Source: a bacterium
GTDB taxonomy: Bacteria; Patescibacteriota; Minisyncoccia; Phycocordibacterales; CALRBL01
Direction: 5' to 3'
DNA length: 64,000 nt
Assembly: GCA_027487075.1 (NCBI GenBank)
Contig: JAIYEG010000002.1
Span: forward strand, 1,244-65,243
Shown here: one piece after another, positions 3,354 through 51,595 of the stretch
Layout: each line of letters opens with the position of its first letter
Position numbering within the stretch: the first letter of the stretch is position 1
Made by a program: the position numbers and the translations under genes
The notes under the pieces: generated by a model
What the model was told of the DNA's origin: nothing
The model's database searches: none
What the model saw: the letters and a program-made list of their open reading frames with translations, nothing else

Positions 3354-4727
3354 ATGAAAACGCTTGGTATACATATCTTTCGTCGTGACCTGCGACTCGA
3401 GGACAATACCGCTCTCAATGCGCTCGCTCGGGAAGTCGACACTATTCTTCCCGTGTTTATTTTTGACAAACGACAGGTGAATGAACATCCGTATCGAAGT
3501 GTCCCTGGACTTCAAATGATGTGTGAATCACTTGGCGATCTTGATAGAACGCTCGCAGAACATGGCGCTGCCCTCTATATCGAAAGTGGAGTAGCAGAAG
3601 AAGTAGTAGAAAAACTCATCAAGACACATACACCTCACGCACTTTCTTTCAACAAAGATTACACGCCGTTTTCCGTAGATCGTGATGAGCGGATCACAAA
3701 GGTGTGCGAAACACATGGTGTGAAGGTGATCGCAGAACACGATGTGACCTTGTATGCACCTGGCACTGTACTCACCAAAGATGGCAAGCCTCATAGTGTA
3801 TATACACACTATCGTGTGGCGACAGAAGTATTGCCACTTCCTGCAGTACATCGGCTTGCAGCAAGTGCGGTATTCGCAAGACGTGAAGGTGGTGAATCAC
3901 TCACTGAGTACATTGCTCGACTTGTGCCGCATCCTGCAGGGCTTCGTGTCAAAGGGGGAAGAACGGTAGCAAAAGACATGCTCCGCGCACTCTCTCACAA
4001 CAAGACATATGCAAAAGAGCGAGATTTCCCCGCGATCAACGCCACCTCACTTTTGTCGGCACACATAAAGTTCGGCACGCTTTCAATACGTGAAATATAT
4101 GTGTATGCAAAAACTCACATGCCACACCCCGACGTCTTTTTGAGGGAGCTCCTCTGGCACGACTTCTTCACGACGGTTGCAGCACTCACACCACATGTCT
4201 ATACGGGGGCATATCGAAAAGAATTTGACAAACTCAAGTGGGATAACAACAAAGAGATGTTTGAGCGATGGAAGGAAGGTAAGACAGGATTTCCTATCGT
4301 CGATGCGGGTATGCGCGAGCTTCTCATGACGGGCTACATGCACAATCGCGTGCGTATGATCGTTGCATCATTTCTTATCAAAGATTTACATATCGATTGG
4401 CGATGGGGAGAAAAATATTTTGCTGAACGGCTTACTGACTACGATCCTGCGGTAAACAACGGCAACTGGCAGTGGGTCGCGGGGACGGGGTGTGATGCAT
4501 CGCCGTGGTTTCGTATCTTTAATCCGTGGCTCCAACAGAAAAAATTTGATGCTGAAGGGGTGTATATAAAAAAGTGGGTACCCGAACTCGCAGATCTTAG
4601 TATCGATGATATTCACGACGAGCGAGGTGATGCTCGCCATGCAGTAGGTTATCCACTTCCTCTGTGTAATCATCGTGAGGAAGCGGCGCGGACCAAAGAA
4701 CTATACGGTATCTTAAAAAAGCAATAG
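3354..4727 (+). CDS. phrB: Deoxyribodipyrimidine photolyase (cryptochrome/photolyase family)
   Basis: 457 aa. It has an N-terminal photolyase alpha/beta domain ('IHIFRRDLRLEDNTAL') and a C-terminal FAD-binding domain ('WRWGEKYFAERLTDYDPAVNNGNWQWVAGTG'). Confidence 0.85.
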   Translation: MKTLGIHIFRRDLRLEDNTALNALAREVDTILPVFIFDKRQVNEHPYRSVPGLQMMCESLGDLDRTLAEHGAALYIESGVAEEVVEKLIKTHTPHALSFNKDYTPFSVDRDERITKVCETHGVKVIAEHDVTLYAPGTVLTKDGKPHSVYTHYRVATEVLPLPAVHRLAASAVFARREGGESLTEYIARLVPHPAGLRVKGGRTVAKDMLRALSHNKTYAKERDFPAINATSLLSAHIKFGTLSIREIYVYAKTHMPHPDVFLRELLWHDFFTTVAALTPHVYTGAYRKEFDKLKWDNNKEMFERWKEGKTGFPIVDAGMRELLMTGYMHNRVRMIVASFLIKDLHIDWRWGEKYFAERLTDYDPAVNNGNWQWVAGTGCDASPWFRIFNPWLQQKKFDAEGVYIKKWVPELADLSIDDIHDERGDARHAVGYPLPLCNHREEAARTKELYGILKKQ

Positions 4728-9020: not shown

Positions 9021-10265
9021 ATGTATTATCGAATCGCGCGAAATGTAGGGAATTTTTCTCGTACAGGCGCACCAGCTACTCGTCCTTCTCGTGGAGGATA
9101 TAAAGGTTCTCGAGGACCATCTCGTGGTAACTCTCGAGGTAATCGTTTCGGAGGAAGTCGTATCGACGTGTCTCGTTATATTAGCAAAGCAGTTGTTTCT
9201 GTAGAAGAGCCTGTTGCGTATGTTCCAAAACATGCCTTTGCAGATTTTCAAGTGATGCCAGGTCTCAAGAAGAATATCGAGGTAAAGGGGTATGTTCTCC
9301 CAACACCAATTCAGGATCAATCAATCCCTGTTATCCTCGAAGGAAAGGATATCGTAGGTATTGCAAACACTGGTACCGGAAAGACCGCTGCCTTTCTTAT
9401 TCCACTTATCAACAAAGTGCTCACCGGAAAGCGTGAGCAGGTCCTTATCGTTGCACCTACGCGCGAGCTTGCACTTCAGATCAATGATGAGCTCGCAGGT
9501 TTTGCTGCAGGACTCCGTATGCACTCAGTGACCTGTGTTGGTGGAATGCCTATCGGTCGTCAGCTTGCAGGACTTCGCTACCACAATGAATTCATCATCG
9601 GAACACCGGGTCGTATCAAAGACCTTATCGAACGAAAGGCGCTTGATCTTTCGGGATTCAAGACCGTCGTGCTCGACGAGGCTGATCGTATGCTCGACAT
9701 GGGATTCATTAATGATATGAAGTTGCTTATGTCGAAGATGTCTAAGGAAAACCGACAGACACTCTTCTTCTCAGCGACGCTTTCACCAGAAATCGATCGT
9801 CTCATTAAGGATTTCCTTAAAGACCCTGTTCGAGTTTCAGTAAAGACTCAGGACACGGCGAAGAATGTCGAACAAGACATTGTGCGCGTTGGTCCTGGTT
9901 CAACCAAGATCGACACCCTTCACGATCTTCTTTCTAAAGAAGACTTCAAGAAGGTGATCGTGTTCGGACAGACCAAGCACGGCGTCGAAAAGCTCACCGA
10001 TCTTCTTCAAAAGCGAGGTCATAAAGCGGTCTCAATTCATGGAGACAAGAATCAGGCTCAGCGACAGCGAGCACTCAACGATTTCAAACAGGATCGTATG
10101 GATATTCTTGTGGCAACAGACGTTGCGGCGCGTGGCCTTGATATTAACGATATCTCACACGTGATCAACTACGAACTTCCCACATCTCACGAAGATTATA
10201 TTCACCGCATCGGTCGAACCGGTCGAGGAAATAAGAAAGGTAAGGCCTTTACGTTCGTAGACTAG
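9021..10265 (+). CDS. DEAD-box ATP-dependent RNA helicase with an N-terminal RG/RGS-rich extension
   Basis: It carries a Q-motif, motif I 'TGTGKT', 'VLDEAD', 'SAT' and 'HRIGRTGR'. Before the Q-motif there is an approximately 60-aa Arg/Gly/Ser-rich stretch. Confidence 0.85.
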   Translation: MYYRIARNVGNFSRTGAPATRPSRGGYKGSRGPSRGNSRGNRFGGSRIDVSRYISKAVVSVEEPVAYVPKHAFADFQVMPGLKKNIEVKGYVLPTPIQDQSIPVILEGKDIVGIANTGTGKTAAFLIPLINKVLTGKREQVLIVAPTRELALQINDELAGFAAGLRMHSVTCVGGMPIGRQLAGLRYHNEFIIGTPGRIKDLIERKALDLSGFKTVVLDEADRMLDMGFINDMKLLMSKMSKENRQTLFFSATLSPEIDRLIKDFLKDPVRVSVKTQDTAKNVEQDIVRVGPGSTKIDTLHDLLSKEDFKKVIVFGQTKHGVEKLTDLLQKRGHKAVSIHGDKNQAQRQRALNDFKQDRMDILVATDVAARGLDINDISHVINYELPTSHEDYIHRIGRTGRGNKKGKAFTFVD

Positions 10266-13502: not shown

Positions 13503-13531
13503 TTGACGGTGAACTAGTGTTCACCTATACT
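13503..13531 (+). promoter_or_regulatory. Sigma70-like promoter with an overlapping LexA (SOS) operator. The promoter is TTGACG, a 17-bp spacer, then TATACT. The operator is GGTGAACTAGTGTTCACC.
   Basis: A perfect 18-bp palindrome with the GAAC-N4-GTTC core (Cheo-box class) at 13508-13525 sits in the spacer between -35 (13503-13508) and -10 (13526-13531). It is 9 bp upstream of the ATG of the small-ORF and lexA operon. Confidence 0.65.
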
Positions 13532-13539
13532 ATATTCAT

Positions 13540-13728
13540 ATGAGCAAGAACAAATACATCAAAGAAATAGAGAGGGAATTACAAAGATTAAACGAAGTGA
13601 TTGATTTCAAGATTTTGCATGGACTTGCGTATAAAGAAGAAACGCGTCAGCATCGCAAGCTCTTGGATCAGATGAATGGTATCCGCCGTCAAAAGCGCAG
13701 TTTTAACCTATTTGGTATACTCTTTTAG
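13540..13728 (+). CDS. Small SOS-box-controlled protein (62 aa) co-transcribed with lexA. It has a basic, coiled N-terminal region and a hydrophobic C-terminus.
   Basis: Its ATG lies immediately downstream of the LexA operator. Its stop is 4 bp before the lexA start. The C-terminal 'SFNLFGILF' is hydrophobic. Confidence 0.5.
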   Translation: MSKNKYIKEIERELQRLNEVIDFKILHGLAYKEETRQHRKLLDQMNGIRRQKRSFNLFGILF

Positions 13729-13731
13729 TAC

Positions 13732-14307
13732 ATGTTTGCCACCTACAAGAAAAAAATAGTCGACTTTTATAAGCAGAACCGTCGTATGCCAAGCTATGGC
13801 GAGATCATGAAGCTCACCGGCTTCAAGTCAAAGAACGCTGTCTACAAACTCATCAATAAGCTCATTGAAGCGGGAGTGGTCAGCAAAGATGCCGATGGAA
13901 AGCTTATTCCCGAAGCTATCTACGGAGAAGTGATGCGCCTCACACAACCTGTCTCTGCAGGTATGGGTGCTGAAGTGCAAGAAGAATCTATTGAAAAGCT
14001 CAACCTCACTGAATGGCTTGTCGATAATGAAAGTCAGACCTACATGGTCGACGTTCAGGGTGATTCGATGAAAGACGCTTGCATCCTCGATGGCGACACA
14101 GTTCTTGTTGAACGATCATCATCATTCCGTGATGGGCAGATTGTGGTAGCTCTTATGCAAGATGGGTACACCATTAAGTATCTTCGCAAACAGGGTAGTA
14201 AGATGCATCTCGAACCCGCAAACTCTCGCTATCGTCCTATCTATCCCACTGAAGATAACCCTATCGAGCTCATTGCCGTGGTCAAAGCGGTAATCCGCAA
14301 GTTGTAG
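13732..14307 (+). CDS. lexA: LexA repressor (S24 peptidase)
   Basis: It has an N-terminal wHTH, an Ala-Gly cleavage site ('VSAGMGAEV'), Ser ('GDSM') and Lys ('IKYLRK') catalytic dyad motifs. Confidence 0.9.
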   Translation: MFATYKKKIVDFYKQNRRMPSYGEIMKLTGFKSKNAVYKLINKLIEAGVVSKDADGKLIPEAIYGEVMRLTQPVSAGMGAEVQEESIEKLNLTEWLVDNESQTYMVDVQGDSMKDACILDGDTVLVERSSSFRDGQIVVALMQDGYTIKYLRKQGSKMHLEPANSRYRPIYPTEDNPIELIAVVKAVIRKL

Positions 14308-14410: not shown

Positions 14411-14446
14411 AAAGCCGCGCCCTGTTGCCAGGGTCGCGGGGTTTAG
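14411..14446. terminator. Bidirectional rho-independent terminator between lexA and the convergent downstream gene
   Basis: The GC-rich hairpin CCGCGCCCTG-TTGC-CAGGGTCGCGG is flanked by an A-run on the 5' side (a T-run on the minus strand) and a short T-run on the 3' side. Confidence 0.55.
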
Positions 14447-23371: not shown

Positions 23372-25087
23372 ATGAGTCAATGCGTAAATAAATCAAAACT
23401 AATATATAATCCTCCCATGACCCAAAAGGAAGCATTCGACATACTGAAGACTGGAGTAAACGTGTATATCACGGGTGCTGCTGGCGCAGGCAAGACGCAC
23501 CTTCTCAATATGTATATCGACTATCTGCGCGAGCACGACGTGGCCTTCGGCATCACCGCATCCACGGGTATCGCAGCAACACACATGGGTGGAGTGACAA
23601 TTCACTCATGGACAGGGCTTGGGGTGCGAAGCGAGCTCACACCCTATGATCTCGAGTCACTTCAAGAAAAACAATATCTGTACCGGCGTATCGAAAAAGC
23701 GAGTGTGCTTATTATCGACGAGGTATCGATGCTCCACCATTTTCGTCTCGATATGATTGATCAGGTACTCCGCGCATTCAAGCGTGTGGATGCACCCTTT
23801 GGTGGGATGCAGGTGGTGCTGTGTGGAGACTTTTTCCAGCTCCCGCCAGTGTCGCGCATGGGTGAACCTGATCCAAAATTTATCTACCATTCTCGTGCAT
23901 GGAAAGAAGGGCAGTTTAAGGTCTGCTACCTCGAAGAGCAGTTTCGTCACAATGATGATGTGGCGGTGCGTGTACTCAACGATATCCGCAATGATCGCGT
24001 CGATCGTGGCACTATGCAACATATCGAACATCGCTTCACGACTGAGCGTTCAGAGATGTCGCCGCTTCGTTTGTACACACACAATGTTGATGTCGACAAG
24101 GTGAATGACCAAGAGCTCTACCGACTTCGTGGTGACATGATGACCTACGACATGGAAACACGTGGTAATGCAACACTCGTCGATATATTGAAGAAGAGCT
24201 GTTTGGCTCCAGAATTTTTGAAGCTCAAGGTGGGAGCGAAGGTAATGTTCGTGAAGAATAATTTTGAGGCAGGATATGCAAACGGTACGCTTGGTATCGT
24301 CAAAGAGCTCGAGGGCTTTAGTGGTGGTCCCGTAGTGGAGACGTACGGAGGCAAAACCATTGAAGTACCTGTCGAGAGTTGGGTCATCGAAGAAGATGGC
24401 AAAATAAAAGCAGAGCTCAAGCAATATCCACTTCGTTTGGCATGGGCAATCACCATCCACAAGAGTCAGGGAATGAGTTTGGATATGGTGGAGGTGGATT
24501 TGTCACGCTCCTTCGAAAAGGGTATGGGATATGTGGCGCTGTCGCGTGTGCGTTCGTGGGATGGGCTGTCGATTCTTGGTTTCAACGATGAAGCACTTGC
24601 GGTGGATGGTGAGGTACTTGCGTATGATAAGCAACTACGAGCGCAATCGAATAAAGCAAAGGCACAACTCTACGAAATGAAGGAAAGTAGCACACTCGCC
24701 AAAAAGCAGGAAACATTCTTGAAGCGTATTTCGCCAAAAGCGAATCCAAAGCAGAAAGTGGTAAAGCCCTCGACATTCCAAAAGACGCTCGCACTCCTTC
24801 AGGAGCAGGTATCACTTGCTCAGATTGCAAAACATCGTGGTGTCACTGAAGAGACGGTACTCTCGCATATCGAAACATTGCTCGAAGAAGGACAGATTAC
24901 GAAAGGCGCGATTGAATATTTGATTAAAGGATTTTCAAAAAAGAAATATGATGAGATTGCCGCCCTTCTTAAGAAATTTCACTCGGAAAATGATGATTGG
25001 CGCCTAGCGCCGGTACGTGCTGCGCTTGGTGACCGTCCGAGCTATCGAGATATTCAGCTGGTGAGGTTGTTTGTGAGGAAGTGGTAG
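23372..25087 (+). CDS. Pif1/RecD-family ATP-dependent DNA helicase with a C-terminal HTH domain
   Basis: It has Walker A 'GAAGAGKT', helicase motifs ('IDEVSMLHH', 'VVLCGDFFQLPPV') and a C-terminal HTH ('IAKHRGVTEETVLSHIETLLEEG'). Confidence 0.8.
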   Translation: MSQCVNKSKLIYNPPMTQKEAFDILKTGVNVYITGAAGAGKTHLLNMYIDYLREHDVAFGITASTGIAATHMGGVTIHSWTGLGVRSELTPYDLESLQEKQYLYRRIEKASVLIIDEVSMLHHFRLDMIDQVLRAFKRVDAPFGGMQVVLCGDFFQLPPVSRMGEPDPKFIYHSRAWKEGQFKVCYLEEQFRHNDDVAVRVLNDIRNDRVDRGTMQHIEHRFTTERSEMSPLRLYTHNVDVDKVNDQELYRLRGDMMTYDMETRGNATLVDILKKSCLAPEFLKLKVGAKVMFVKNNFEAGYANGTLGIVKELEGFSGGPVVETYGGKTIEVPVESWVIEEDGKIKAELKQYPLRLAWAITIHKSQGMSLDMVEVDLSRSFEKGMGYVALSRVRSWDGLSILGFNDEALAVDGEVLAYDKQLRAQSNKAKAQLYEMKESSTLAKKQETFLKRISPKANPKQKVVKPSTFQKTLALLQEQVSLAQIAKHRGVTEETVLSHIETLLEEGQITKGAIEYLIKGFSKKKYDEIAALLKKFHSENDDWRLAPVRAALGDRPSYRDIQLVRLFVRKW

Positions 25088-42040: not shown

Positions 42041-43258
42041 GTGCCAGCTATAACATTCACTATCAATAAAAAGCTCGAAGGTACGCTCGGACGTGCCGGA
42101 GTACTCGAAACAAAACACGGAAGTCTACAGACTCCGTGTTTTGTGACGGTCGGTACGAAGGCCGCTGTAAAAGCGGTGATACCAGAACAGGTAAAAGATA
42201 CCGGTGCTCAAGTGGTGCTTTCAAACACGTACCATTTATATCTTCAGCCAGGTCACGAACGTATCGAGAAAGCTGGTGGGCTCGGCAAATTCATGAATTG
42301 GCAAGGCCCCACCATGACCGACTCGGGAGGTTTTCAGGTGTTCTCACTCGGTTCTGCATATGGAAAGGGAATTGGAAAGCTTCTCAAGCCCTCAACCGAA
42401 CCTATTCTTTCTGCTGCTCCTGAAGATGCAAAGCCGAAGCTCGTCGACATCGACCATGATGGTGCGATGTTTCGTTCGCACCTGGATGGATCCGCACACT
42501 ACTTCACGCCAGAAAAGTCGATCGAGATCCAGCATGCGATCGGCGCCGACATGATTTTTGCGTTCGATGAGTGCACCTCTCCTATGGAACCGTTCACCTA
42601 CCAGCGCCAAGCGCTTGATCGAACACATCGTTGGGGAAAGCGCAGCTTGGAATATCACAAGAGCAAGCCGATTTCTGAAGTGCAGGCATTGTTTGGAATC
42701 GTGCAAGGAGGACGTCACGAAGAGTTGCGTAAAGAAAGCGCGAAGGTGACTGCGGAGACGGTCGCTTCAAATGGCGAAGGCTTTGATGGGTTCGGTATTG
42801 GGGGATCGTTTGCAAAAGAGGATATGGAAACTGCGGTGCGTTGGGTGAATGAGATTCTCCCTGAAGAAAAGCCTCGACACCTTCTTGGTATTGGCGAGCC
42901 TGAAGATCTTTTTATGGCTGTTGAGAATGGGTGTGATCTCTTTGATTGCACTGGTCCCACACGTCTTGGTCGCACGGGAACGGTCTACACCAGCACTGGT
43001 AAGATGCATCTTCACAATGCGGAGTTTCGTGATGATTTTACGAAGCTCGATGCTGCCTGCGATTGCTATACCTGCACCAACTATACGCGTGCATACCTCT
43101 CACATCTATTCCATGCAAAGGAAATGGAGGCAGGAACCCTCGCTTCAATTCATAACATCCATTTCATTGTGAATCTTGTTGATCGTATGCGTGAGGGAAT
43201 CCTCGATGGGACATTCCATGCGATCAAAGAAAATTTTTTGAAAAAGTATAAGGGATAA
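42041..43258 (+). CDS. tgt: Queuine tRNA-ribosyltransferase
   Basis: It has a TIM barrel ('LQTPCFVTVGT', 'DSGGFQV') and the Zn motif 'CDCYTCTNYTRAYLSHL'. Confidence 0.9.
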   Translation: MPAITFTINKKLEGTLGRAGVLETKHGSLQTPCFVTVGTKAAVKAVIPEQVKDTGAQVVLSNTYHLYLQPGHERIEKAGGLGKFMNWQGPTMTDSGGFQVFSLGSAYGKGIGKLLKPSTEPILSAAPEDAKPKLVDIDHDGAMFRSHLDGSAHYFTPEKSIEIQHAIGADMIFAFDECTSPMEPFTYQRQALDRTHRWGKRSLEYHKSKPISEVQALFGIVQGGRHEELRKESAKVTAETVASNGEGFDGFGIGGSFAKEDMETAVRWVNEILPEEKPRHLLGIGEPEDLFMAVENGCDLFDCTGPTRLGRTGTVYTSTGKMHLHNAEFRDDFTKLDAACDCYTCTNYTRAYLSHLFHAKEMEAGTLASIHNIHFIVNLVDRMREGILDGTFHAIKENFLKKYKG

Positions 43259-43313: not shown

Positions 43314-43813
43314 ATGAGTCTTGAAATTGAAAGGAAGTTTCTCTTCATCAATTTTGATGAAGTGCTTCCTCGTGCCACATCTTTCGTCGACATCGAACAG
43401 ACGTATCTTAGTTGTGGTGATGAAACTGACGTCGAGTGTCGGGTAAGGAAGGTGACCTCACAAACTGGTGAAGTAACATTTACCTACACGGAAAAAAGGA
43501 AAACCCCAAAAGAGGGTAAGAGGGAAGAGGATGAAATCTCTATCATTAGTGATCAGTATGTGAAGTATCTGAGAAGCCAGGATCCAATGCGCAGACCATT
43601 CAAAAGCGTCGCTACTTGGTAACTCAGAATCTAAATGTGCTGGAAATTGATGTCTATGAGGGTCGACTTAGCGGGCTCGTCGTGCTTGAGGTGGAGTTTC
43701 AGAATAGCGAAGAGTCGGTACAGTTTGTTCCACCACCCGAGTTCAATCTCATTGAAGTTACGGGTGACAAACGCTACTCGAATAAGCAGCTCGCAAGGAA
43801 TGGTCTTCCTTAG
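43314..43813 (+). pseudogene. CYTH-domain (triphosphate tunnel metalloenzyme) gene interrupted by a frameshift near 43585-43615
   Basis: The N-terminal frame gives the CYTH hallmark 'EIERKFL'. The downstream frame, which is shifted, continues with the CYTH 'KRRYLV...LEIDVYEG...VLEVEF' motifs. The two ORFs, 43263..43622 and 43616..43813, together equal one CYTH domain of about 180 aa. Confidence 0.6.
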
Positions 43814-43862: not shown

Positions 43863-44285
43863 GTGAGACATTAGGGTCTTAGGCGGGTTCTCCCACTAGG
43901 AAACCCCATCCGCTCGCTTTTCCATAGAATGGGCAAAGGAGGTATTCTGTTTTGTTTTCCCGAACGACCATTGTCGATATGTGATGGCTTGAGGCGGTGT
44001 TCCGGTACGCAGCTATAGGGCGATGCAGAAGAAGCTCTCTTCTTTCCCACCCAAGTCGCTTTATAGCGGGGGCAACACAGAGTAGACTTTCGGTGCTCTC
44101 ATGTTCAAAATGGTATTGGAGAGCGAGAGATGTGATATCGGCGATATCCCACACTCCTTTTCCTACAATGATCATCATCCTCCTCCTGCCTTTGGATCCG
44201 AAGCAGCCAAGGTCGGTTGTAATAAAAGAACTCATGATGACTACCATAGAGTAATCATGAGCTAATATCAAGAAAATGTATAAAT

Positions 44286-44320
44286 AAAAAACAGCGGGCG
44301 GAGAGTGTATCTCCGCCCGC
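44286..44320 (-). terminator. Rho-independent terminator for the small minus-strand gene
   Basis: GCGGGCGGAGA-GTGT-TCTCCGCCCGC with an A6 run on plus. Confidence 0.6.
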
Positions 44321-44338
44321 GACGTTCTGATCCTGGAT

Positions 44339-44539
44339 TCACGTTTGGTAAATGTGGTTGGTCCACCGCGGAATCGGGTAAATTGTGCCCCGTGGTGGTT
44401 GGGGCAACTTCCTGCTTCTCTTGAATCGATGACGAATTTGATCGAAGAAAGATTCACCAGGAATTTCATCCAGCGACGGGACATCATGGTCGGGGTCAAG
44501 CTCGAACTCATTTTTCCAGGCACGCGGAATTTCGATCAT
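44339..44539 (-). CDS. Small hypothetical protein (66 aa)
   Basis: A strong RBS (AAAGGAGAG) lies 6 nt before the ATG. A terminator lies downstream. Confidence 0.45.
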   Translation of the reverse strand: MIEIPRAWKNEFELDPDHDVPSLDEIPGESFFDQIRHRFKRSRKLPQPPRGTIYPIPRWTNHIYQT

Positions 44540-44614: not shown

Positions 44615-46777
44615 ATGCCAAAAGCTTCAAAAGCATCTCACAACAATGATTCGCCATTCACCATCAGCACGGCATTTGCTCCAGCAGGTGATCAGCCAAA
44701 GGCAATCGCTAGTCTTGTTGATGGACTCAAGAAGGGGTTGCGACACCAGACGCTTCACGGTGTAACGGGGTCCGGAAAGACCTACACCGCCTCACAGGTC
44801 ATTCAACAACACGGCAAGCCAACACTTGTGATCGCGCACAACAAAACGCTCGCAGCGCAGCTCGCTCAAGAGTATCGAGAATTTTTCCCGAACAATGCGG
44901 TGCATTACTTCGTGTCCTACTATGACTACTATCAGCCGGAGGCATACATGCCGCACACTGATACCTATATCGAGAAAGAAGCACAGATCAATGCCGAGAT
45001 CGATCGTCTTCGTCATGCATCTACCCAAGCACTCCTTACCCGCAAAGATGTGATCATTGTTGCGTCAGTGTCATGTATATACGGTTTGGGAAGCCCAGAA
45101 GAATATGAGAAGTCTCACCTCAAGATCGCAAAGGGTGCAACGATGGATCGTGCTGAACTCATTCGACGTCTTATTCATATTTATTTCGATCGTACGAATG
45201 CAGACATGATGCCGGGAAAGTTTCGTGCGCTCGGCAACTCAATGGAAATCATGCCGGTGAACGAACGTGTCATCTATCGCATCGACTTTGGTATCGAAGG
45301 TGCGACGCCAATCATCAAAAGCATTATCAAGATCGACGAAATTACGCGCGCCATCATCGGTGAGATAGACGCATTCTTTTTGTTTCCCGCAAAGCACTTC
45401 GTGACCCCTGAAGATGAGCGTGAACGAGCGATTAAGGATATCAAACACGAACTCGATGAGCGTCTTGAGGTACTCAAGGCAGAAGGAAAACTTCTTGAAG
45501 CAGATCGCTTGAAGCGCCGCACCACCTATGACCTCGCGCTTATCAAAGAAGTGGGATACTGCAACGGTATCGAAAACTATTCACGACATTTTTCTGGTAA
45601 GGCACCTGGCGAAGCGCCGGATACGTTGCTTTCATATTTCCCACACAAGAAAGATGAGAAGGGAAATCTAGTTCCCGATTTCCTTACTATCATCGACGAG
45701 TCGCATGTGACGGTGCCACAGCTCAATGGAATGTATGCTGGTGATCAGTCGCGCAAGCAGAGTTTGGTGGATTTCGGTTTTCGTTTGCCTTCTGCTCGTG
45801 ACAACCGCCCGCTCAAGTTCCCTGAGTTTCTCGAACGTACCGGTCAGATTGTGTACACCACGGCAACACCCGGAAAATACGAACTTGAACACTCACAAAA
45901 TATCGCAGAGCAGGTCATTCGTCCGACCGGTCTTCTTGATCCTGAGGTTGAAGTGCGACCGATTATTTCGATGGCGCCCTTCGAAGGGCGCCATTACAAG
46001 GGTCAAATTTTCGACTTTATTGATGAAGCAGAGCGCACGATTGCAAAGGGATTTCGCGTGATCGCAACGACGCTCACCAAGAAGATGGCAGAGGACTTGA
46101 GCGAATTTCTGAAAGAGCGAAAGATCAAAGCTGCGTACATCCACAGCGACATCGAAACACTGGAACGTATCCAGATCCTCACTGAGCTTCGCAAGGGTAC
46201 CTACGACATCATTGTGGGAGTGAACTTGCTTCGTGAAGGACTTGATCTTCCTGAGGTGGCGCTCATCGGTATTCTCGATGCTGATAAGGAAGGCTTTTTG
46301 CGCTCGGAGTCGGCACTCATTCAGACGATTGGTCGTGCCGCGCGAAACTCTGAGGGAAAAGTGATTTTGTATGCCGAACATATAACCGGCTCGATGGAAC
46401 GCGCACTGAATGAGACAAATCGCCGTCGTACGCTGCAAATCGCATACAACAAAGAGCACGGCATCACACCAAAGACGATCATTAAGCGTATCAAGGATAT
46501 TACAGAAGACATCGAGAACGAACATCAGAAGACCATCAAGACACTCCTCACGATGGACGCTGAAGCATTTGCCAAAGATCCGAAGAAAGTGATTAAGATG
46601 AAAGAGCAAGAAATGCAGGAAGCGGTGAAGGAACTCGATTTCGAAACGGCAGCGTTGTTGCGAGATGAAATTAAAGCACTTATGGAGGGAACAGTGAAAG
46701 CAGAAAAGAAAGCTGCAAAAGCAAAGAAGGAGGCGAATAAAGGAATTCGTGGAAAGAAACAGGATTTGCGCGGATGA
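44615..46777 (+). CDS. uvrB: Excinuclease ABC subunit B
   Basis: 720 aa. It has 'GVTGSGKT', a beta-hairpin region, helicase motifs and the C-terminal UVR domain ('DFETAALLRDEI'). Confidence 0.9.
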   Translation: MPKASKASHNNDSPFTISTAFAPAGDQPKAIASLVDGLKKGLRHQTLHGVTGSGKTYTASQVIQQHGKPTLVIAHNKTLAAQLAQEYREFFPNNAVHYFVSYYDYYQPEAYMPHTDTYIEKEAQINAEIDRLRHASTQALLTRKDVIIVASVSCIYGLGSPEEYEKSHLKIAKGATMDRAELIRRLIHIYFDRTNADMMPGKFRALGNSMEIMPVNERVIYRIDFGIEGATPIIKSIIKIDEITRAIIGEIDAFFLFPAKHFVTPEDERERAIKDIKHELDERLEVLKAEGKLLEADRLKRRTTYDLALIKEVGYCNGIENYSRHFSGKAPGEAPDTLLSYFPHKKDEKGNLVPDFLTIIDESHVTVPQLNGMYAGDQSRKQSLVDFGFRLPSARDNRPLKFPEFLERTGQIVYTTATPGKYELEHSQNIAEQVIRPTGLLDPEVEVRPIISMAPFEGRHYKGQIFDFIDEAERTIAKGFRVIATTLTKKMAEDLSEFLKERKIKAAYIHSDIETLERIQILTELRKGTYDIIVGVNLLREGLDLPEVALIGILDADKEGFLRSESALIQTIGRAARNSEGKVILYAEHITGSMERALNETNRRRTLQIAYNKEHGITPKTIIKRIKDITEDIENEHQKTIKTLLTMDAEAFAKDPKKVIKMKEQEMQEAVKELDFETAALLRDEIKALMEGTVKAEKKAAKAKKEANKGIRGKKQDLRG

Positions 46778-47950: not shown

Positions 47951-50587
47951 ATGAAAAAATCTCCTGAAAACAAGTCGCACGATGAACACAATGGGTCTAT
48001 TGTGGTAAAAGGAGCTCGAACCCACAATCTCAAGGATATTACGGTTGAGATGCCACGCAACAAGATGATCGTGATCACGGGTCTTTCTGGTTCCGGAAAA
48101 TCATCGCTTGCTTTCGACACGATCTTCGCTGAAGGACAGCGACGCTACGTCGAGTCTCTTTCATCATATGCTCGACAATTCCTTCGCCAGATGCAGAAAC
48201 CAGACGTCGATGAGATCACCGGCCTTTCTCCTGCTATCTCAATCGATCAGAAATCTCGCTCGAACAACCCGCGTTCGACGGTGGCGACCATCACCGAAAT
48301 CTACGACTATCTCCGTATTTTGTTTGCGCGTGTGGGTAAGCCACATTGTTTGGTGTGCGGCCGCGAAATCAAAAAACTCTCGAAGGAGGAAATTCTTGAG
48401 AGTATTATCAAAACAGTGAACGCAATCGACACCTCGAAGAAAAAGGTGATGGGTGTCGAACTCACTGATGCGACGTTCTCAGTGTACGCGCCAGTGGTGG
48501 TAGGACGAAAAGGTGAATACTACCAGCTTCTCTACGATCTGCTTGGTAAAGGATATGAAGAAGTGCGTATTGATGGCAAACCTCACAAACTTCGTGAGCA
48601 AATCGTACTTACCAAAACTCATAAACATGATATCGACGTGCTTGTTGATCGATTCTACGTGTCTGAGCTCGCCACAAAAGATAAAAAGCAAAAGGAGAGC
48701 TTCGATGAACGTTTGAATGAAGCAATTGAAAAAGCGCTCGATCAAGCTGAGGGATTGCTTCGTATTGTTGCTGATGGAGTGGAGGGAAGTGATCACCTCA
48801 TTTCTTCGAAGTTTATGTGTCCGTTTGATGGATTTTCATATCCTGAAATCGAGCCGCGTTTGTTCTCATTCAACTCACCATACGGTGCGTGTCCTGAATG
48901 TAATGGTCTTGGTACACGTGGATTTTTTGTGAATGAGGCATGCCCCGTATGTCACGGTGCACGTCTTCGACCCGAAGCCCTCCATGTGTTCTTGATGAGT
49001 GGTGATGGATCTGAAGCAGGGCATAAAGTAAATATTATTGAATTGGTGGACCGTTCAATCAAAGATGCGATTGGTTTCTTCAAGTCACTCAAACTTTCAC
49101 CAAAAGATAAAGAAATTTCTAAAGTGGTGATAAAGGAAATTCAGAACCGTCTCACCTTCATGAATGATGTAGGTATTGAATATCTTTCATTGTCGCGTAA
49201 AGCAAACACGCTTTCAGGAGGAGAGGCGCAGCGTATTCGTCTTGCATCACAACTTGGTTCGGGGCTCGTAGGTGCACTCTACGTGCTCGACGAACCCACA
49301 ATCGGCCTTCATCAGCGCGACAACGATCGCCTCATCAAGACACTTCTTAGCTTGCGTGATGCAGGGAATACGATCGTAGTGGTAGAGCACGATGAAGATA
49401 CGATCTACGCCGCAGACTATATTGTCGACATTGGTCCAGGGGCAGGTGTACACGGTGGAGACGTGGTGGTGTCAGGATGGCTTGAAGATCTGCTCACCAC
49501 AAAGAAGAATGATTCAGGTTCGCTCACGCTCGGCTATCTTCGCAAAGAGAATGAAGTTCCCGTACCTGAAAAGCGACGTGATCACGATGCGGGTAAGATC
49601 ATGATTCGTGGGGGAAATATTTTTAATATCAAAAACCTCAGCGTTGATATTCCGCTTGGTCGCCTCATCACGGTCACTGGTGTGTCGGGATCAGGCAAGT
49701 CATCATTCGTGTACGAACTCCTCTACAAAAATCTTCAAGCACGACTCGAAAAGCGCAAGCGCACCGCACAGCTCTTCAATGTGGGAAGCTTCAGTGGTAC
49801 CGAGTATGTTGGTCGCTCAATTCTCATCGATCAATCTGCGATCGGGCGTACGCCTCGCTCAAACCCGGTGACCTACACTGGAGCCTTCAGTCATATTCGT
49901 GATATGTTTGCCACTACCTCAGAAGCAAAAGCACGAGGGTGGTCTGCGAGTCGCTTCTCATTCAACGTAAAAGGTGGGCGATGTGAGACCTGCCAAGGAA
50001 ACGGCATGATCGAAGTGGAAATGCACTTCTTGCCGACGGTGTTTGTGACGTGCGATGTTTGCAACGGCAAGCGCTTCATGAAAGAAACACTCGAAGTGAA
50101 ATACAAAAAGAAGAGTATTTACGATGTGCTCGAGATGACTGTTGAAGAAGGTCTCGCATTCTTTGAGGACATTCCGTCTATTTATGATCGCTTAAAGACG
50201 CTTGATGAGGTGGGTCTCGGATATCTCAAGCTCGGTCAGTCTGCAACCACACTCTCTGGTGGAGAAGCGCAGCGTGTGAAAATTGCTTCAGAGCTTTATC
50301 GTCCACATGTGCAGAAGACGATCTACATTCTCGATGAACCAACCATCGGACTTCACTACGAAGACGTACGCAAGCTCATCGAAATTCTTCAGAAGTTGGT
50401 GAACAAGGGGAACACCGTGCTTGTGATTGAGCACAACATGGATCTCATCAAATGTTCAGACTACATCATCGATATTGGTCCTGAAGGAGGAATTGGTGGA
50501 GGACAGATTGTGGCGAAGGGAACTCCTGAGGAGGTGGCGAATAGTCCGAAGAGCTTTACGGGGAAGTATCTTAAAAAAATTTTGTAA
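47951..50587 (+). CDS. uvrA: Excinuclease ABC subunit A (short form, 878 aa)
   Basis: It has two ABC NBDs (Walker A 'GLSGSGKSS' and 'GVSGSGKSS'; signatures 'LSGGEAQR' twice) and Zn-finger cysteines ('CPECNGLG', 'CETCQGNG'). It is about 60-70 aa shorter than canonical UvrA. Confidence 0.9.
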
Positions 50588-50776: not shown

Positions 50777-51595
50777 CTAGACGATAACAGCGGGGACTTG
50801 GCGAGCCCGTTCAAGAAGCTCGTCGTTGGTGTAGCGTTTGCGCTGGATCTTCCTCCACTTTCCATCACCGGACAGATCAAGTTGCCAAGGGCAGATTGAC
50901 CGCATCCAATTCAGGTGTGGGTGTGGCGCCGTCGTTCCACTGGTGTGCGGATCGGTGCGAGTGTAGTGAATCACTTGGCAGTTGTGAATTCGGTGATACG
51001 GCTTTTTGGAGCCGTCGAGCTTGCGGAATTTTTCTTGGGACATCCGCTCGAGTCTGACGCGAAACGCCCACATCACTTCGCCGTGACAGACGATAATGAC
51101 GTTCTTTCCTTCGCATTCGCGATGGAGGGTGTCGATCACGCGGTCGATTCGCAAGCAGAGGTCCGCAAGAGAAGTTCCGTTCGGAGGCACCCAGTAAAAT
51201 GGGTCTACCTTGCGTTCCTTCATTGCCACCGCGAACTTTTGTTCACGCTCCTCTACGGAAACGCGATCGAGAGCACCCCAATCACGCTCGCGCAGATAAA
51301 AGTCTTCATACCACTGCGCATCCGGAAGAGCAAGGAGACCTGCGGTTTCCATCGCGCGAATGTAGGCAGAGGTGTAATGACGATCAAACCGCAGACCGAG
51401 GTTGGCAGTGATCCACCTTCCTGTTTCTGTTGCTTGGGCGACTCCCTTTGCAGAGAGACGCCAGAGTGAACTGTGGCGGCTGGTGAATTTCGGATCGTTG
51501 AACGCGCTGTGGTCGCCCTTCTTGGAGCGATCGACAGCAACGTTACCTTCTGATTCGCCGTGGCGTACCAGAACAAGGTTGAGAGGCATTGACAT
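50777..51595 (-). CDS. Histidine-phosphatase (PGAM-like) superfamily protein
   Basis: It has the 'LVLVRHGESEGN' RHG motif and a later 'CHGEVM' motif, plus a C-terminal extension of about 70 aa. Confidence 0.7.
   Translation of the reverse strand: MSMPLNLVLVRHGESEGNVAVDRSKKGDHSAFNDPKFTSRHSSLWRLSAKGVAQATETGRWITANLGLRFDRHYTSAYIRAMETAGLLALPDAQWYEDFYLRERDWGALDRVSVEEREQKFAVAMKERKVDPFYWVPPNGTSLADLCLRIDRVIDTLHRECEGKNVIIVCHGEVMWAFRVRLERMSQEKFRKLDGSKKPYHRIHNCQVIHYTRTDPHTSGTTAPHPHLNWMRSICPWQLDLSGDGKWRKIQRKRYTNDELLERARQVPAVIV

Follow-up and report, generated by a model that had tools for sequence, protein, structure and literature searches.

We analysed a stretch of 64,000 nucleotides (nt) of contig JAIYEG010000002.1, to which we refer as the window, and focused on two adjacent genes on its + strand that follow a predicted LexA-regulated promoter. 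The first is a small open reading frame (ORF) of 62 amino acids (aa) (13540-13728, with its ATG at 13540), whose product belongs to an unnamed lexA-linked family; the second is lexA (13732-14307), encoding an S24 autoprotease repressor of 191 aa, as recognized by its match to PF00717. An earlier reading of the locus, made from the letters without database searches (hereafter the sequence-only reading), had described a 62-aa protein as the first gene with lexA after it, and both ORFs were confirmed. Its statement that lexA is co-transcribed 4 bp downstream was right in that lexA is the next gene of the same operon, but the separation is 3 nt (TAC), between the stop codon of the small ORF (TAG, 13726-13728) and the lexA ATG; a simple terminator scan gave no terminator-like site between the two genes. 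Judged from its sequence and from related loci, the locus is very probably a LexA-autorepressed, damage-inducible operon.

A promoter scan placed the -35 hexamer TTGACG at 13503-13508 and the -10 hexamer TATACT at 13526-13531 (both + strand), which together match 10 of 12 consensus positions and are separated by a 17-nt spacer. The predicted LexA operator (GGTGAACTAGTGTTCACC, 13508-13525, + strand), recognized with a position matrix, fills this spacer, with the last G of the -35 hexamer doubling as the first G of the operator. It is built of two 7-bp inverted arms, GGTGAAC (13508-13514) and GTTCACC (13519-13525), around a TAGT centre, such that the inverted tetramers GAAC and GTTC lie 4 nt apart, at positions where base frequencies are at least 0.93 across 75 sites. 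All elements of the GAAC-N4-GTTC-type dyad that the sequence-only reading had placed between TTGACG and TATACT were thus present. Its description of an 18-bp perfect palindrome holds for the 7+7 inverted repeat but not for the asymmetric 4-nt centre: TAGT does not pair with itself, and what remains is a dyad with a spacer in place of a full palindrome.

Conservation of the operator among related loci

Taken by itself, the repeat is not significant, because the GAAC-N4-GTTC core occurs in the window at close to the chance level (2 copies versus 1.28 expected) and perfect 7+4+7 inverted repeats are common there (10 versus 3.8 +/- 1.9 in shuffled sequences). These counts would fit a chance palindrome, or a DNA or RNA hairpin unrelated to LexA. 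The significance of the operator stems instead from its conservation among relatives. We collected 80 genome loci via LexA, nearly all of which have the same promoter layout. Of 82 related loci, 70 have an exact core in the 200 nt that precede the operon, as compared with three exact cores in the remaining 399 kb of these loci (~0.0015 per 200 nt). The arrangement of a -35 element, GGTGAAC-N4-GTTCAC(C) and TATA(C/A)T was matched at 18 bits or more in 74/76 informative genome loci, a figure that is circular because the matrix was trained on those very sites, and an operator match was also found in 35/36 independent metagenome loci, none of which was used for training. The dyad to which LexA is predicted to bind therefore lies in lexA's own promoter in both sets, the layout of an autoregulated gene.

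With a matrix built from the relatives' sites and the window site, the window operator scored 28.0 bits, and no other site in the window exceeded 10.4 bits. Over 75 sites the arms were conserved at 97-98%, with a free centre; counted by position, conservation was 93-98% apart from the left arm's first G (85%) and the right arm's last C (64%). Three close relatives share the architecture with a variable centre; two close relatives, whose small ORFs are 76-81% identical to that of the window, kept TTGACA, GGTGAAC-N4-GTTCACC and TATACT and differed in the four central bases. More widely, the relatives carry TTGAC(A/T/G) or TTGCA(G) at the matching -35 place, the spacer is 17 or 18 nt in 61/71 loci, and the -10 element directly after the operator is TATACT in 44 loci and TATAAT in 28. 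This combination of conserved arms, free centre and fixed promoter place is typical of a site for a dimeric repressor, predicted here to occlude the promoter. The same pattern, with the arms conserved, the loop variable and the repeat fixed between -35 and -10 and always before lexA in more than 100 loci, effectively refutes a chance origin, and a transcribed hairpin is further disfavoured because the repeat would lie outside the transcript, which is predicted to start near 13538; we regard either explanation as almost certainly wrong.

Transcript layout and translation initiation

Between the -10 hexamer and the start codon of the small ORF lie 8 nt, and transcription would therefore start near 13538, leaving a leader of 0-2 nt and an mRNA that is leaderless or nearly so. 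An even shorter distance between the -10 element and the start codon, 6-7 nt, was found in seven relatives. Shine-Dalgarno-like motifs preceded the small ORF in none of 70 loci and lexA in 2 of 59, and leaderless or Shine-Dalgarno-independent initiation seems to be usual in these operons. On the other side of lexA, a GC-rich hairpin between convergent genes (14415-14439) folds with -20.3 kcal/mol on the + strand (z -3.0) and -19.5 kcal/mol on the - strand (z -4.5), with a U-run after the stem on the - strand. It is likely to mark the end of the operon as a bidirectional-terminator-like element, and the simple terminator scan gave no call at this position.

The end of the small ORF contains a speculative internal extended -10 element (TGGTATACT, 13713-13721, + strand), located 10 nt before the lexA ATG. 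In 25/69 loci a -10-like hexamer lies among the 40 nt that precede lexA, versus a background of 0.046 per 40 nt, an enrichment that is overstated because the background is mostly coding sequence. These hexamers mostly end 6-10 nt before the lexA ATG and often overlap the stop codon of the small ORF (...CTATAAT), which suggests a second, box-free promoter giving a leaderless lexA mRNA. A separate promoter appears to serve lexA in one sub-clade, where the box directly precedes the small ORF only.

A spacer of 114-250 nt separates the small ORF from lexA in the sub-clade formed by loci L018, L057, L061, L070, L074, L077 and L126. It contains a conserved hairpin of ~75 nt (e.g., L061:2400-2480) whose loop region, UUUCCCCGA, is invariant and for which RNAalifold gave -33.5 kcal/mol and compensatory changes were seen in 16/32 pairs. 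A comparison with Rfam returned no family match for this hairpin, which might mark a processing site, act as an attenuator or represent a small RNA.

The LexA repressor

The S24 peptidase domain (PF00717) was matched with E 9.4e-26 over LexA residues 73-184, and the TIGR00498 lexA model aligned end to end over residues 9-190, with 94.4 bits against a cutoff of 110.95. The residues associated with self-cleavage are in place, namely the Ala76-Gly77 cleavage site (13957-13962), Ser112 (14065-14067) and Lys149 (14176-14178), and none of the four varies among 30 aligned relatives. Relatives annotated as LexA come from Patescibacteria, Parcubacteria and Paceibacterota assemblies, and the source organism belongs to the Patescibacteria (Paceibacteria). 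Four positions ahead of the catalytic lysine, LexA of the window has Gly145 (14164-14166).

A small-protein family linked to lexA

The sequence-only reading had named, as part of what would refute it, a small ORF that is not conserved upstream of lexA in relatives; we found the opposite, which favours that reading. Searching the LexA loci with tblastn revealed the small ORF beside lexA, at 30-50% identity, in 70/79 informative genome loci (69 directly upstream of lexA and one cut by a contig end). Going in the reverse direction, from the small protein, lexA was found downstream in 31/31 metagenome loci that had room for it, and three additional look-ups with the small protein gave the same linkage. 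The two genes lie at a median gap of 10 nt, with 4-nt overlaps in some loci. Departures from this arrangement were also seen: the order is reversed in L013 (box, lexA, small ORF), a DUF5680 gene is inserted between the two genes in L088, the small ORF is retained in loci where it lies 100-450 nt from lexA, and nine loci have LexA and the box with no small ORF nearby.

A first word-index search with the small protein returned two relatives only. Profile searches recovered 225 cluster representatives (50% identity) at E<=1e-3 from a representative library and 236 proteins from a word-indexed collection; all are small, and those that are named are 'hypothetical'. The small protein is conserved to a degree similar to that of LexA (~45% versus ~50% identity), and the family consensus, MSKxxxxxxIxxEIxxLNxxIDLKIIKGLSYxxEARRHKFLxxQLxxL...SWFxRSLSFxSxFMF, includes nine positions that are invariant in 113 sequences (E13, N18, I21, D22, I25, G28, Y31, H38 and L41). 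The ratio of nonsynonymous to synonymous substitution rates (dN/dS) was 0.076 between loci L001 and L002, synonymous sites being otherwise saturated. By these measures the small ORF is a real gene under purifying selection.

These data also bear on the possibility that the small ORF serves as a leader, in which case its translation would matter for lexA expression and the peptide itself would have no function. Such coupling has some appeal since, with Shine-Dalgarno motifs nearly absent before lexA and its start codon 3 nt past the upstream stop, lexA translation may hinge on ribosomes finishing the small ORF. However, a functionless peptide is not expected to carry nine invariant residues, a dN/dS this low and a fold that is predicted with confidence (see below), nor to be kept downstream of lexA, as in L013, or 100-450 nt away from it, and we consider this explanation very improbable.

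Neither Pfam nor NCBIfam gave a significant family for the window protein or for the scanned family members, PHROGs gave no significant match (best E-values 0.09), and a profile search of PDB sequences gave nothing below E 0.5. Relatives of the small protein were likewise absent from 50,697 phage records searched with tblastn and from viral contigs. We rejected a phage origin, as no match was found in these phage records or viral contigs and no specific one among viral models. We also rejected a divergent ribosomal protein S20 (bS20), to which the family bears a local KGL..K..A.RHK likeness: the PDB profile E was 0.63, the hhalign probability 8.6%, and there was no Pfam S20 match. When 71 members were scanned against Pfam, LysM gave no match, and both SulA and DUF896 were absent among the 25 of 26 weakly matching families (E<=1) that were listed; at 62 aa the protein is moreover too short for SulA.

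Predicted structure of the small protein

AlphaFold2 confidently modelled the window protein as a hairpin of two helices, residues 3-26 and 32-61 (predicted local distance difference test score, pLDDT, 87.7). In the model of a typical family member the second helix extends to residue 48 and is followed by a low-confidence linker and a short tail helix. The predicted protein is a basic alpha-helical hairpin whose C-terminal tail, short and flexible, is aromatic and hydrophobic. Residues 1-50 carry a net charge of +6.6 on average in the family and +4 in the window protein. The tail follows the consensus SWF-x-[RK]-[ST]-hydrophobic-[SGN]-hydrophobic-hydrophobic-S-x-F-hydrophobic-hydrophobic, and its hydrophobic and aromatic residues fall on one face of the helix.

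The basic N-terminus and hydrophobic C-terminus described in the sequence-only reading are borne out as far as the basic hairpin is concerned, but the hydrophobic end amounts to merely 9 uncharged residues in the window protein (family median 10). Over the family, the best Kyte-Doolittle mean of any 19 consecutive residues had a median of 0.20 and reached 1.16 at most. We therefore discarded a transmembrane peptide, since this hydropathy is far under the level of a membrane helix and the tail is too short and too polar. The suggested likeness to membrane peptides such as SidA and YneA did not hold either, as the family has no transmembrane segment.

A fold search against the PDB and viral models yielded generic helical hairpins only (such as SSV1 D-63 and the arms of seryl-tRNA synthetase), with a best E of 0.4-0.5. 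The tRNA-binding nature of these synthetase arms and the mean charge of +6.6 over the first 50 residues would agree with a protein that acts on DNA or the replisome, either as a nucleic-acid-binding hairpin or as a sliding-clamp binder that slows replication via its C-terminal peptide. The tail motif [ST]-hydrophobic-[SGN]-hydrophobic-hydrophobic (SFNLF in the window protein, SLSFV elsewhere), which we take to be loosely like the clamp-binding motif QL[SD]LF, was present in a loose form in 50% of 172 family members, as compared with 13% of shuffled tails. But the motif is devoid of the usual Gln and its enrichment shows merely positional conservation in the tail, while neither the fold matches (best E 0.54) nor the S20 likeness (hhalign 8.6%) is significant, so an action on DNA or the replisome seems unlikely.

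LexA boxes elsewhere in the window and flanking genes

The sequence-only reading had named uvrA, uvrB, the photolyase and Pif1 as likely members of the regulon. This expectation failed within the window, where we found no LexA box at uvrB (44615-46777), uvrA (47951-50587), the photolyase gene (3354-4727) or the Pif1 helicase gene (23372-25087); the best site outside the lexA promoter reached 10.4 bits, versus at least 21 bits for real sites. The second GAAC-N4-GTTC core of the window, at 51233, is within a histidine-phosphatase gene and is not credible. The second-best matrix match (TGGTGAAGTAACATTTACCT, 43466-43485, 10.4 bits) is not in a promoter and is probably due to chance; it falls between tgt (42041-43258) and a gene convergent to it (43879-44523), in the 620 nt that separate their ends. 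No additional sites of at least 15 bits were detected in ~400 kb of flanks of related loci. The nine further perfect 7+4+7 repeats of the window, at 9926, 18219, 18600, 40616, 41659, 43344, 45974, 50615 and 62857, are not LexA-box-like.

Conservation of the neighbourhood is confined to the two-gene unit, since the genes upstream differ even from those of the closest relatives. A histidine kinase gene is present upstream of the operon in the window, whereas the two closest relatives have a DUF5665 gene (78 aa) that diverges from the operon (L001:5656-5892 and L002:861-1097). In both of these loci lexA is followed by a gene for an MgsA/RarA-type AAA ATPase.

A model for the operon and for the role of the small protein

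According to the model that we propose, a LexA dimer would bind GGTGAAC-N4-GTTCACC and, because this site fills the spacer between -35 and -10, block RNA polymerase. Following DNA damage, activated RecA would trigger LexA self-cleavage at Ala76-Gly77 via Ser112 and Lys149, as suggested by the conservation of these residues. The promoter would then fire and produce a leaderless two-gene mRNA, from which the 62-aa protein is made first and fresh LexA second. The small protein would be a conserved SOS-induced effector, composed of the hairpin, a flexible stretch and an amphipathic tail. This tail might target it to the membrane's inner face or to a partner in the divisome, so that division would be delayed until LexA is restored.

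In this form the small protein would be the SOS checkpoint or division-delay protein of the lineage, a plausible but tentative proposal, and the one that we favour. In Gram-positives, yneA, sosA, chiZ and divS adjoin lexA, one reason for considering a checkpoint role here, and Pseudomonas co-transcribes lexA with sulA. A cell-division inhibitor also belongs to the core Gram-positive SOS regulon (PMC7739468). The amphipathic tail would suit peripheral membrane or divisome targeting, and the box of one sub-clade, which directly serves the small ORF only, points in the same direction.

Several observations weigh against parts of this model. The DNA-binding domain of LexA (PF01726) was matched weakly at the N-terminus of the repressor (E 0.028, 14.6 bits versus a cutoff of 23.7). 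The small protein does not resemble any known division inhibitor, having no transmembrane helix, LysM or SulA domain. Being co-transcribed with lexA, it would be made at a basal level even without damage, a drawback for a potent inhibitor. Whereas the Gram-positive inhibitors evolve fast, the small protein is conserved at the level of LexA, which would suit a fixed intracellular partner, such as LexA itself, equally well. The tail, finally, could be a degron or a protein-binding peptide.

This raises the alternative that the small protein acts as LexA's partner, either as a co-repressor or by modulating self-cleavage, and tunes repression by binding LexA or LexA together with operator DNA. We regard it as the main rival and see for it a real but smaller chance. 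The near-obligate linkage to lexA in both directions and the level of conservation, about that of LexA, would agree with such a role, tight gene packing would suit stoichiometric synthesis, and the charges are complementary (+6 for the small protein and -6 for the C-terminal domain of LexA). In addition, the residue four before the catalytic lysine covaries with the small ORF: it is Gly in 68/72 loci with the small ORF and Q, K or E in 9/9 loci without it. This position presumably corresponds to E152 of E. coli LexA, where changes alter the cleavage rate. However, the nine loci without the small ORF are spread over about three LexA clades (at least 3), and the covariation thus comes from few clades. 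LexA also appears able to work alone, because these nine loci keep LexA and the box with no small ORF nearby. Nor did the searches of PDB sequences and of PDB and viral folds reveal a likeness in sequence or in specific fold to gp7 of phage GIL01 or to other solved structures, and the conserved hydrophobic tail would have no obvious role. If a LexA partner is nevertheless what the small protein is, the SOS switch of the Paceibacteria could, at the same modest level of probability, be a two-protein device in which a hairpin protein made from the same mRNA sets the operator affinity or the cleavage rate of LexA, and the Gly at this position would be a co-adapted change.

Comparison with known systems

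The operator and the autoregulated lexA are ordinary. With the Gram-positive LexA (DinR) Cheo box the locus shares the GAAC-N4-GTTC dyad, its location in the lexA promoter and an S24 autoprotease repressor, but the conserved arms here extend to 7 bp (GGTGAAC) and the operator is fitted precisely between the -35 and -10 hexamers. The consensus of the Bacillus LexA box is CGAAC...GTTCG. The bases that flank the core in the loci studied here are T/A (97%), not C/G as in dinBox1 of PMC4551915. A LexA motif and regulon for Patescibacteria have been published (Sanchez-Osuna, Barbe and Erill 2017, Environ Microbiol 19:3465), to judge from the citations of that study in PMC8565304 and PMC7739468.

It is the small protein that is probably an undescribed part. 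Across a class-level lineage, its family has a closer link to lexA than the known SOS accessory genes have. Because Paceibacteria genomes are tiny and their owners mostly unculturable, a gene welded to lexA in this way is likely to be central to the handling of DNA damage. Should it be a checkpoint protein, it would provide a first handle on cell-cycle control in the Paceibacteria radiation; should it be a LexA partner, helpers of the SOS repressor would not be confined to phages and Acinetobacter. Under either of these two readings, if true, the family would be a new entry on a short list.

Among the systems that come closest, YnzC (DUF896) of Bacillus is a short helical hairpin whose function is unknown and which is encoded in a LexA-regulated operon next to lexA. 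The small protein shares with it the short helical hairpin and the LexA-regulated operon (here predicted), and differs in its C-terminal part. With the SOS division inhibitors YneA (Bacillus), SosA (Staphylococcus), ChiZ (Mycobacterium) and DivS (Corynebacterium) it has in common that it is small, lineage-specific and encoded beside lexA under what would be LexA control (for context, see PMC6851548, PMC13396833 and PMC7739468). Unlike these proteins and SulA, it has no transmembrane helix, LysM or other extracellular domain, or SulA fold; its gene is transcribed with and ahead of lexA, not divergently as are the genes of the first four, and it is far better conserved within its lineage than they are.

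Two further proteins offer precedents for a partner of LexA. DdrR of Acinetobacter, a co-repressor of 78-81 aa, is always encoded next to umuDAb, and the two genes have their operator in common (PMC7273328). The small protein resembles it in being lineage-restricted, of similar size, encoded beside an S24 repressor gene with which it shares one operator and, as predicted here, damage-induced, although ddrR and umuDAb diverge, while the small ORF and lexA point the same way and would be read as one transcript. The gp7 protein of phage GIL01 enhances binding of LexA to DNA and slows its RecA-mediated cleavage (PMC4551915). The small protein is very small as well and could, like gp7, act via a LexA of the GAAC-N4-GTTC type, but gp7 is encoded by a phage and the small ORF is chromosomal and lineage-wide. 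As a LexA partner, the small protein would thus correspond, as a chromosomal gene product found throughout its lineage, to gp7 of the phage and DdrR of Acinetobacter.

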